This document shows, piece by piece, positions 40,736 through 43,198 of a DNA stretch of 64,000 nt (the first letter of the stretch is position 1; every line of letters starts with the position of its first letter). Under the pieces are notes generated by a model that worked only from the letters and a program-made list of their open reading frames with translations, searched no databases and had not been told where the DNA came from. The DNA comes from a virus. Lineage: Duplodnaviria; Heunggongvirae; Uroviricota; Caudoviricetes. A program made the position numbers and the translations under genes. The stretch is from IMG/VR virus record IMGVR_UViG_2713896798_000008. One strand, given 5' to 3'.

Positions 40736-43198
40736 ATGAGCACTGATAAAGAAGAATTTGCGCTATATTGCGAAGCAAAAAATGACAAAGTCAGAAAACG
40801 TCTGGGAATTAAAGGTGGTTTTTACTGGACTACAGCAAAAAAATTATCTGTTGCCATCTCCCGCTGCATTACCGCAATGGATGACAACGATTATGATGAA
40901 GACGACTTTAAAAAACCCGTTCGCGTCCATTTACCCGTTGTGAATGACCTTCCACCTGAAGGCGTGTTTGATACCGAATTCTGCAACCGATACGAAAAAG
41001 GCGGGGAAGATGGCATTACAATGGTATTTATCGCGCCCTCTCCCTCCGTGCAGGAGAAACCAGCCAGTACTGACAATACCAACGTCAACGGCGAAGACAT
41101 GACGGAGATTGAGGAGAATATGCTCCTGCCGGTTTCTGGTCAGGAGCTGCCCATTCGCTGGCTTGCGCAACACGGCAGCGAAAAACCAGTAACGCACGTT
41201 GCACGGGAAGAACTTCAGGCATTACATATAGCACGGGCGGAAGAACTGCCGGCTGTTACTGCCCTGGCCATTTCTCACAAAACAAAGCTGCTCGACCCGC
41301 TGGAGATTCGCGACCTTCACAAACTGGTACGCGACACTGACAAAGTTTTCCCTAATCCCGGTAATTCAGACCTGGGACTGATAACTGCTTTTTTCGAGGC
41401 ATACCTGGACGCTGACTACACTGATCGGGGTCTGCTGACAAAAGAGTGGATGAAAGGAAATCGTGTTTCGCGTATCACCCGTACGGCTTCCGGTGCAAAT
41501 GCCGGTGGCGGGAACAAAACCGATCGCAATCCGAATTTAGTACACACCTTCGATACGCTGGATGTGGAGATTGCAGCAGCCACACTTCCGATGGATTTTA
41601 ATATTTATGAAATTCCGGGCAGCGTTTATCGTCGCGCAAAAGAAATCGTCCTGAAAAGAGAAAGTCCGTTCAAAGAATGGTCCGCAGCACTTCGCGCAAC
41701 CCCGGGTATTCTGGACTATTCCCGCGCCGCTATTTTTGCACTTATCCGGAGCGCTCACCCTGAGTTTTATCACTACCCGGGACGCCTTCAGGGGTATATC
41801 AACGCCTACTTAACGGAGACTGATCACGAGAACCCCAGCAAGGAAACTCTCACTGCTGCACGACATACACCGGAAAAAGATATCCTGGAAGAAGTTAACC
41901 GCGAACTGTCTGCTAAGCAGGAAACAGAAGAAGAAGAAAATGATGAAGAAAAACCGCAACCATCTTGCGCAATGGCAGATGAACAGGCAACGGCTGAAAC
42001 AGTGGAACCGGATGCAACTGAACATCATCAGGACACGCAGCCGCTGGATGCTCAGTCACAGGTAAATTCTGTTGATGCGAAATATCAGAAACTGCGGGCA
42101 GAACTCCATGAAGCCCGGAAAAACATTCCGCCCCAAAATCCTGTCGATGCAGACAAATTACTGGCTGCCTCTCGCGGAGAATTTGTTGAAGGGATTAGCG
42201 ACCCGAATGATCCGAAATGGATTAAGGGGATCCAGACCCGCGATTCTGTGTACCAGAACCAGCAAGAAACGGAACAGAACGACCAGAAAGCGGAACAAAA
42301 CAGCCCAAATGCGTTACAAAACGAGCCAGAAACGAAACAGCCTGAACCAGTGGCGCAACAGGAAGTGGAAAAAGTCTGCACCGCCTGCGGTCAGACCGGC
42401 GGCGGCAACTGCCCTGATTGTGGCGCGGTGATGGGCGACGCAACATACCAGGAAATATTCGATGACAAGAACCTGGTTGAAGTTCAGGAAGACGATTCGG
42501 AGAAAATGGAAGGCGCTGAACATCCACACAAGGAGAATGCTGGCAGCGCTCAGGACCACGCCAGCGATAGTGAAACTGGCGAGACGGCAGATCCCTTAAT
42601 TACGGTGAACGGTCATCACGTTATCACATCCACCAGCAGGACGTGTGACCATCTAATGATCGACCTTGAAACCATGGGAAAAAATCCTGATGCCCCGATT
42701 ATCTCAATAGGTGCAATATTTTTCGATCCGCAAACCGGAGATATGGGACCGGAATTTAGTAAGACTATCGATCTGGAAACTGCTGGCGGAGTCATTGATC
42801 GGGACACCATTAAATGGTGGCTTAAGCAATCACGCGAAGCGCAATCTGCCATTATGACCGATGAAATCCCGTTAGATGATGCACTGTTACAATTGCGGGA
42901 ATTTATCGACGAAAACTCCGGTGAATTTTTTGTTCAGGTCTGGGGAAATGGAGCCAACTTCGACAACACGATTTTGCGCCGTTCATACGAACGGCAGGGG
43001 ATCCCCTGCCCGTGGCGTTACTACAACGATCGCGATGTGCGCACAATCGTTGAGCTGGGGAAAGCCATAGACTTCGATGCCAGAACGGCTATTCCATTCG
43101 AAGGTGAGCGCCATAATGCACTTGATGACGCCCGTTACCAGGCAAAATACGTTTCAGTTATCTGGCAAAAACTGATCCCGAGTCAGGCTGATTCTTAA
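40736..43198 (+). CDS. large exonuclease: RecE-like N-terminal region, acidic linker, zinc ribbon, C-terminal DEDDh 3'-5' exonuclease
   Basis: 820 aa; RecE-like block [43 protein letters not shown]-terminus DLETMG...GNGANFD...[11 protein letters not shown]. Confidence 0.7.

Follow-up and report, generated by a model that had tools for sequence, protein, structure and literature searches.

Among the closest described counterparts of the gene studied here is recE of the Rac prophage, the product of which carries a region matched by PF06630, a helical domain (N2 below), acidic stretches, a zinc ribbon and, at its C-terminus, a toroidal 5'-3' nuclease of the PD-(D/E)xK type (residues 564/606-866), and which has RecT as its partner. 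In a stretch of 64,000 nucleotides from the Caudoviricetes record IMGVR_UViG_2713896798_000008 (the whole of which is called the window hereafter) we analysed a plus-strand gene for an 820-residue protein that has the first four of these features in common with Rac RecE but has neither the RecE nuclease nor a recT partner. A DEDDh exonuclease domain stands in place of the former.

Stand-alone relatives of this domain have been described in several settings. The DnaQ-type exonucleases from the P22-like Rec modules of mEp235 (gp30) and epsilon34 have 58% identity to the window domain and the same motifs, but they are single-domain proteins of about 180 residues that are packed between Erf/SSB and Abc2 (the order in the mEp235 Rec module being Erf-SSB-exo-Abc2), whereas in the window protein the domain is fused to a scaffold of 630 residues. 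T4 DexA (8KEL), the structure of which was solved recently (Kang et al. [quoted passage not shown] The same study described a stand-alone E. coli homologue, EcD ('HREX'), that degrades DNA containing 5-hydroxymethylcytosine (5hmC) and protects against T4. EcD is another single-domain member of the family, with 38% identity to the window domain.

A published survey of lambdoid Rec modules (Zheng et al. 2025, Genome Res; PMC12315714) included some 'RecE-2' proteins without a nuclease, and a small class named 'Tritos' that has only a nuclease, lacks a single-strand annealing protein (SAP), SSB and anti-RecBCD functions, and is rich in Chi sites. According to that survey, phages without anti-RecBCD genes or any Rec module depend on the RecBCD/Chi system of the host.

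Exchange of the nuclease domain on a RecE-type scaffold

The C-terminal domain was matched by PF16473 ('3'-5' exoribonuclease Rv2179c-like') over residues 639-810 with an E-value of 1.5e-67 and a score of 227.2 bits (gathering cutoff 27), covering profile positions 2-177 of 177, and a weak Pfam match to RNase_T overlies the same stretch. The motifs are Exo I, D643-x-E645, Exo II, NGANFD743 (N-x3-F-D), and Exo III, H793-N-A-L-D-D798 (HxAxxD, with the histidine as general base), and they were preserved across an alignment of 50 sequences. In an AlphaFold2 (AF2) model of residues 540-820 the predicted local distance difference test (pLDDT) score exceeds 95 throughout the nuclease domain. A Foldseek search of the PDB with this RNase H-like DEDD fold ranked T4 DexA 8KEL first (3e-12), followed by RNase T (1e-9), Cap18, REXO2 and oligoribonuclease (Orn), and in a PDB search by sequence the DexA entries 8KEL and 8KEN were the sole matches of the protein. 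Pfam, PDB sequence and Foldseek searches gave no sequence or fold match to the RecE nuclease or any other PD-(D/E)xK domain; PF12684, the RecE-type nuclease, was absent from the window protein and was detected in a control protein (P0150).

The remainder of the protein is clearly related to RecE. K-12 RecE (residues 50-592) aligned with residues 58-623 of the window protein at 62% identity in BLASTP, and PF06630 ('Exonuc_VIII') covers residues 57-189 (E 3.4e-34). The NCBIfam RecE equivalog model NF007259 aligns with residues 1-623 through its positions 1-603 of 877, and its score of 998.8 bits lies below the cutoff of 1269, so the protein does not qualify as a full-length equivalog. The first 57 or so residues gave no BLASTP alignment to K-12 RecE, yet they were matched by the NCBIfam model. 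Past residue 623 (RecE 592) BLASTP found no similarity to K-12 RecE. Since the BLASTP and profile matches stop at residue 623 (nucleotide 42604, inside the second acidic linker), the homology ends approximately at the boundary between scaffold and nuclease, and the alignments show the RecE PD-(D/E)xK nuclease to be replaced by the DEDDh domain exactly at the domain boundary. The gene and the parts of its product are:

40736..43198, plus strand: RecE-scaffold/DEDDh exonuclease gene (ATG start, 820 residues)
40736..41035, plus strand: N1, a small alpha/beta domain, residues 1-100 (pLDDT 86-97 in the AF2 model)
41093..41935, plus strand: N2, an all-helical domain, residues ~120-400, the best-conserved part of the scaffold
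41480-41527, plus strand: glycine-rich loop within N2, residues 249-264, recognised by conservation
41816..42055, plus strand: first acidic low-complexity stretch, residues ~361-440, recognised by net charge
42377..42421, plus strand: zinc ribbon CxxC-x7-CxxC (C548, C551, C559, C562), common to RecE
42422..42640, plus strand: second acidic linker, predicted to be disordered (pLDDT <50)
42641..43195, plus strand: DEDDh domain (DnaQ/RNase T/DexA-like, PF16473), residues 636-820, recognised by Pfam, motifs and fold

A preliminary description of this DNA, made from the letters alone, had placed the reading frame at exactly these positions and had recognised both the likeness of the N-terminal two-thirds to RecE and DnaQ-like motifs at the C-terminus instead of the PD-(D/E)xK fold, in all of which our searches agree with it. 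The acidic linker and the zinc ribbon to which it drew attention are indeed present, but they belong to the RecE homology and are not specific to this protein; since RecE also has a zinc ribbon, this element is a part of the scaffold and not a novelty of the window protein.

The scaffold was modelled with confidence (pLDDT 88) and had no structural relative in the PDB or BFVD. In N1 the residues W31, D71, P73, E75, D79, C83, Y86 and D92 are near-invariant. The glycine-rich loop of N2 is strongly conserved in close homologues and lost from many distant ones, and its residues 252-256 have a pLDDT below 50 in the AF2 model; the loop could be a binding site or a flexible functional loop. The net charge amounts to -8 to -11 per 40 residues in both acidic regions (~361-440 and ~561-620), and the zinc ribbon has a pLDDT of 66-75 in the model of residues 540-820.

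The ratio of nonsynonymous to synonymous substitution rates (dN/dS) was 0.09 for N1, 0.06-0.10 for N2 and at most 0.14 for the DEDDh domain, and higher in the linkers (0.26-0.42 in the first acidic stretch and 0.65-0.90 in the second). In comparisons between genera dN was lowest in N2 and the DEDDh domain. Both folded domains of the scaffold and the nuclease domain are therefore under purifying selection, which is relaxed in the linkers.

By analogy with its characterised relatives, the enzyme very probably depends on Mg2+ and removes nucleotides at 3' ends, with a polarity opposite to that of RecE. DNA is the most likely substrate, given that among characterised proteins DexA is closest to the enzyme and that the scaffold derives from a DNA enzyme.

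Two classes of RecE-scaffold loci

No gene for RecT, Erf, SSB, Abc2 or lambda Exo, Bet or Gam was found by tblastn in any frame of the window, and the PGAP annotation of a near-identical prophage in NZ_CP144926.1 contains no annealase. There is no space for an annealase gene between the repressor gene and the exonuclease gene, and xis and int follow directly downstream. The absence of a RecT partner and the identity of the downstream neighbours had both been claimed in the preliminary description, and both held, the former also for frames that might have been overlooked.

The class was surveyed by an exhaustive HMMER search of representatives at 50% identity, followed by classification per domain. 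Among these representatives, the long RecE-scaffold proteins comprised about 17 with a DEDDh domain, about 17 with the RecE nuclease and about 23 with neither; no C-terminal Pfam domain was found in those of the last group that were submitted. The DEDDh fusions reach down to approximately 37% identity overall. When a single genome of each species was scanned, with the conserved N2 core as query, 62 loci were obtained (22 of the DEDDh type and about 33 of the RecE-nuclease type), all from Enterobacteriaceae by title except one 'Veillonella' and one 'Proteobacteria' contig from metagenome-assembled genomes (MAGs). The genera with DEDDh loci include Enterobacter, Citrobacter, Kluyvera, Pluralibacter, Kosakonia and Buttiauxella, and judged from this spread the fusion architecture is old and recurrent, conserved across genera of the Enterobacteriaceae.

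The genomic context of the two classes differs consistently. A RecT gene (PF03837) starts 0-14 nucleotides past the stop codon in 31 of 31 complete loci of the RecE-nuclease class, whereas in the DEDDh class the same position, at 36-344 nucleotides, is taken by Xis (PF07825) and/or a tyrosine integrase (PF00589) in 20 of 20 complete loci, none of which has RecT, Erf or SSB within 10 kb on either side. The dichotomy with respect to RecT is significant by Fisher's test (p = 1.3e-14, uncorrected for phylogeny). Contiguity with SAP, SSB or anti-RecBCD genes, the arrangement of epsilon34 and mEp235, was seen neither in the window nor in the 20 loci. As the repressor gene lies at a median of about 1.2 kb upstream in 21 of the 22 DEDDh loci, these too have no room for an annealase. 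The RecE nuclease thus pairs with RecT, and the DEDDh form occurs without an annealase beside xis/int, as a class-wide rule.

Some individual sequences deserve mention. The contig JAGZPX010000007.1, from a MAG titled Veillonella parvula, carries a prophage segment of the E. coli type with a DEDDh domain 100% identical and an int 96% identical to those of the window, and is almost certainly a binning contaminant. In a 703-residue protein of the representative library (P0125) the N-terminal RecE scaffold is joined directly to a RecT domain (PF03837, residues 528-678) without a nuclease, which looks like an in-frame deletion that fused recE and recT. E. coli ECMA0423 and Shigella flexneri SFBU1023 have a gene for the N-terminal RecE scaffold without a detectable nuclease domain or RecT, and a homologue of lambda Gam (81% identity) about 1.5 kb downstream of it (~12110-12397 of each locus); by their gene content these loci are a separate combination, of scaffold and anti-RecBCD function.

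Tritos, a viable, cultured phage, has the same operon as the window (cI, small genes, dicB, ydfD, exo, xis and int). Its gp27 ('exonuclease VIII', 823 residues) is 93% identical to residues 471-820 of the window protein, but about 245 residues at its start form an N-terminus that is not homologous to the RecE-type N1 of the window, and its first 256 residues are 99% identical to K-12 YdfE. The ydfE pseudogene of the K-12 Qin prophage is, by this homology, an IS2-truncated remnant of the family with the alternative N-terminus. We had considered ydfE as a remnant of the N-terminal variant found in the window, but it has no homology to the window protein, because it carries the Tritos-type N-terminus. 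Pfam found no domain in YdfE, and we found no functional study of ydfE in the literature searched. A second candidate remnant, exoD of DLP12, was rejected, as tblastn showed no homology.

The window contains 15 Chi sites (GCTGGTGG), where shuffled sequences lead one to expect 2.5; the region of interest in this respect is 1-44900, especially 22600-44900. The prophage part contains ten of them, eight on the minus strand, which is the rightward or 'top' strand of the phage; six of these eight lie in the right arm, between int and the lysis/cos end, and one site is located within the exonuclease gene itself (42630-42637, minus strand). The window has the features of the 'Tritos' type, namely a nuclease as the sole recombination-type gene of the early-left operon, at least four top-strand Chi sites (eight in the prophage part) and homology to the nuclease of Tritos. 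In the gene and upstream of it, top-strand Chi sites occur once per 2.1 kb in DEDDh loci versus once per 5.1 kb in RecE/RecT loci (Mann-Whitney p = 6e-5 for species-level loci); on the bottom strand 28 and 10 sites were counted, respectively.

The gene is common. By megablast it is present over at least 80% of its length in 1,275 of 5,426 complete E. coli genomes, usually under the product name 'exonuclease', and the DNA of the DEDDh domain alone in 4,111 of them, with related genes at 1-9 copies per genome. PGAP names the product 'exonuclease' or '3'-5' exoribonuclease domain-containing protein', and a large protein database is rich in near-identical proteins with PF06630 and PF16473. Phage records that carry the gene, including those of Stx2a-converting phages, usually label it 'exodeoxyribonuclease VIII', another label being '5'-3' ds DNA exonuclease'; the misnaming probably comes from PF06630 'Exonuc_VIII', a model of the N-terminal part of RecE, which is not catalytic. 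The earlier reading of the window is thus supported as a whole, but the arrangement is not unusual, being abundant in E. coli and already present in the literature.

The early-left operon and its surroundings

The gene is part of an early-left region with the order repressor, DUF1391 gene, dicB, ydfD-like DUF1482 gene, exonuclease, xis and int:

38810..39454, plus strand: CI/LexA-family repressor gene, head of the early-left region
39524..39552, plus strand: candidate pL-like sigma-70 promoter TTGACG-17-TATATT (consensus match only)
39728..40643, plus strand: small early-left genes (DUF1391, 39728-39880; dicB, 40270-40458; ydfD-like DUF1482, 40455-40643)
43271..44837, plus strand: xis (43271-43522) and tyrosine integrase gene int (43542-44837), directly downstream of the exonuclease gene

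On the plus strand, no promoter-like site other than the pL-like candidate lies between the genes for the repressor and the exonuclease. From its position, the exonuclease gene is probably transcribed from a repressor-controlled pL and would then act when the phage grows lytically or is induced, and not while the lysogen is quiescent.

Homology to the dicF-dicB DNA of Qin (window 40045-40374) begins within dicF, and a terminator-like hairpin is retained at 40050-40076. A DicF small RNA (sRNA) in the window was considered and rejected, as there was no Rfam match at the gathering threshold and only the hairpin and the partial DNA homology remain; DicF, although annotated in Tritos, may have been lost from the window or have diverged.

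The near-identical prophage of E. coli in NZ_CP144926.1 is a complete Gifsy-2-like lambdoid prophage that carries a fused protease-capsid gene, RusA, the Q antiterminator, a DNA methyltransferase and the nleC effector, and that sits in ydfJ, adjoining the Qin remnant. Following the annotation of that genome, a remnant of the cryptic prophage Qin extends beyond int in the window (45600-49200), with a ydfK-like gene, the pinQ invertase gene (46219-46809), tfaQ (46907-47482, minus strand) and tail-fibre and J fragments. Since this remnant directly follows int, the window covers a tandem prophage region at ydfJ. At the other end, positions 1-2000, which have a low GC content (0.43), correspond, by position only, to the IS3-split nleC type III effector cargo of NZ_CP144926.1.

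Possible role and significance

To the explanation that we prefer we assign, as a whole, with the domain exchange, the 3'-5' activity, the expression from pL and the role taken together, a probability of about one half, and to the role by itself somewhat less. In that role the enzyme would act on 3' overhangs or flaps, trimming them from the ends of phage DNA or from recombination intermediates, the trimmed ends would let RecBCD load and reach the many correctly oriented Chi sites of the phage, and the nuclease would be brought to ends or to partner proteins by the RecE scaffold, as is presumed for RecE. Tentatively, the most likely role is that of an accessory in DNA-end processing for phages that depend on RecBCD, Chi and RecA of the host, and not that of resection for single-strand annealing. 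This is consistent with the higher density of top-strand Chi sites in DEDDh loci than in RecE/RecT loci and with the example of Tritos, which is viable with the same operon and was classed as nuclease-only and Chi-rich. The RusA resolvase encoded in the prophage of NZ_CP144926.1 also fits a role in assisting RecBCD.

Several points weigh against this explanation. A passage in Zheng et al. (PMC12315714), citing Lovett 2011, states that 3'-5' exonucleases, by destroying the invasive 3' tail, are usually inhibitory to homologous recombination, and the same survey excluded DnaQ-type genes beside int from the Rec modules. The association with Chi is correlative and was obtained from loci that are phylogenetically non-independent. 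Pfam names Rv2179c, with which PF16473 was founded, as an RNA exonuclease, which leaves a DNA substrate uncertain, and as the scaffold has no structural relative, the delivery step is purely inferential. Moreover, the literature searched contained no biochemical or genetic study of the window protein or of any fusion of the RecE N-terminus with a DEDDh domain.

A wider view, which we offer as speculation, is that the N-terminal scaffold of RecE would be an autonomous module for binding DNA ends or partners, to which phages could attach a nuclease of either polarity or none at all; the DEDDh form would then represent a distinct, annealase-independent strategy in which a 3'-5' enzyme that trims ends cooperates with RecBCD and Chi of the host in recombination-dependent growth and possibly also attacks the DNA of competitor phages.

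The main alternative is a function in anti-phage defence or superinfection exclusion, in which the DEDDh domain would digest incoming, possibly base-modified, phage DNA from its 3' ends in the manner of EcD ('HREX'). The membership of EcD and the window domain in one Pfam family speaks for this in view of the activity of EcD on 5hmC-DNA and its protection against T4 (PMC12153337), and the occurrence of the domain in so large a part of the E. coli genomes suggests a benefit to the host. Escherichia and Citrobacter are the main carriers of 'bacterial DexA homologues' (PMC12153337), and those counts may include prophage fusions of the present kind. Two positions in the window domain nevertheless differ from EcD. 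At the position of DexA D90 EcD has Ala78, a loss of the tetramerisation residue, whereas the window domain has an aspartate (in the segment LDDAL); at the position of DexA W152, which stacks on 5hmC, DexA, EcD and mEp235 have tryptophan and the window domain has Tyr763 (PWRYYNDRD), a residue that is also aromatic, while the equivalent of D169 is not alignable. An EcD-like protein of 189 residues from viral contigs, with the start MIDTET and Ala78, was 38% identical to the window domain. With its aspartate at the D90 position the window domain is, by the criteria of Kang et al., not of the EcD type. Furthermore, with its place in the pL operon, after the repressor, and without a promoter-like site of its own the gene is probably silent in lysogens, PADLOC (2023) gave no match, and a defence function leaves both the 630-residue RecE scaffold and the strict positional replacement of recE-recT unexplained. 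For these reasons we consider this alternative unlikely.

It is less probable still that the protein is a nuclease for single-strand annealing after all, either with another prophage as the source of an annealase in trans or with annealing or synapsis performed by the scaffold itself. The genomic position of the gene is that of recE-recT and exo-bet, and close stand-alone homologues lie beside Erf and SSB in mEp235. A passage in the review PMC11611040, citing Fu et al. 2012, reports that full-length RecE, i.e. with the scaffold, boosts linear-linear recombination, and a partner in trans is conceivable where, as in strains of enterohaemorrhagic E. coli (EHEC), many prophages are held and up to nine related copies are found in a genome. 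Yet a 3'-5' exonuclease yields 5' tails, the wrong polarity for a mechanism in which the exonuclease loads the annealase, and besides the lack of an annealase gene in the window itself, an annealase is missing from all 20 complete loci of different species and from Tritos, so that a partner in trans would be unreliable there.

An exoribonuclease that trims 3' ends of RNA, such as the pL transcript, a DicF-type sRNA or host transcripts, is somewhat more improbable again. In its favour, the family is named for the 3'-5' exoribonuclease Rv2179c, the proteins of similar structure include RNase T, oligoribonuclease and REXO2, and the gene lies within an operon of the dicB/dicF type. Against it, DexA, a DNA exonuclease, is nearest among the solved relatives in sequence as well as in fold, the same type of scaffold is found in a DNA recombination nuclease, there are homologues in DNA recombination modules, and DicF is not detectably conserved in the window. 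Finally, a non-functional chimera of a decaying recE remnant and a neighbouring DEDDh gene, joined by chance, might be imagined in early-left prophage regions, which are mosaic and often decayed (as K-12 ydfE and IS-split copies illustrate), but it is very hard to reconcile with intact 820-residue reading frames in more than 1,000 genomes, with dN/dS far below 1 in every folded domain, with an architecture kept across genera down to about 37% identity and with the presence of the gene in viable phages.

The protein is not rare, nor is it new to the records: as a variant within the RecE family it is widespread and catalogued, though uncharacterised by experiment. What is added here is the exact boundary of the exchange, the rule that the RecE nuclease goes with RecT and the DEDDh form with no annealase and a higher density of Chi sites and, as a smaller point, the link of K-12 ydfE to the DEDDh exonuclease family. 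The names 'exodeoxyribonuclease VIII' and '5'-3' dsDNA exonuclease' imply the wrong catalytic domain, as the domain actually present predicts the opposite polarity.

The dichotomy between RecT and DEDDh loci suggests that the RecE scaffold has a job that depends neither on the RecE nuclease nor on RecT, and it opens a way into the N-terminal two-thirds of RecE, a part long without an explanation and relevant to linear-linear recombineering. For the proposal that Chi-rich lambdoid phages without annealase or anti-RecBCD genes depend on RecBCD of the host, the DEDDh form is a concrete candidate gene on which it can be examined. The enzyme is among the commonest uncharacterised prophage enzymes of E. 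coli, occurring also in effector-carrying phages of EHEC and in Stx2a-converting phages, and its role therefore bears on prophage induction, on recombination between prophages and on the mosaic evolution of toxin phages.

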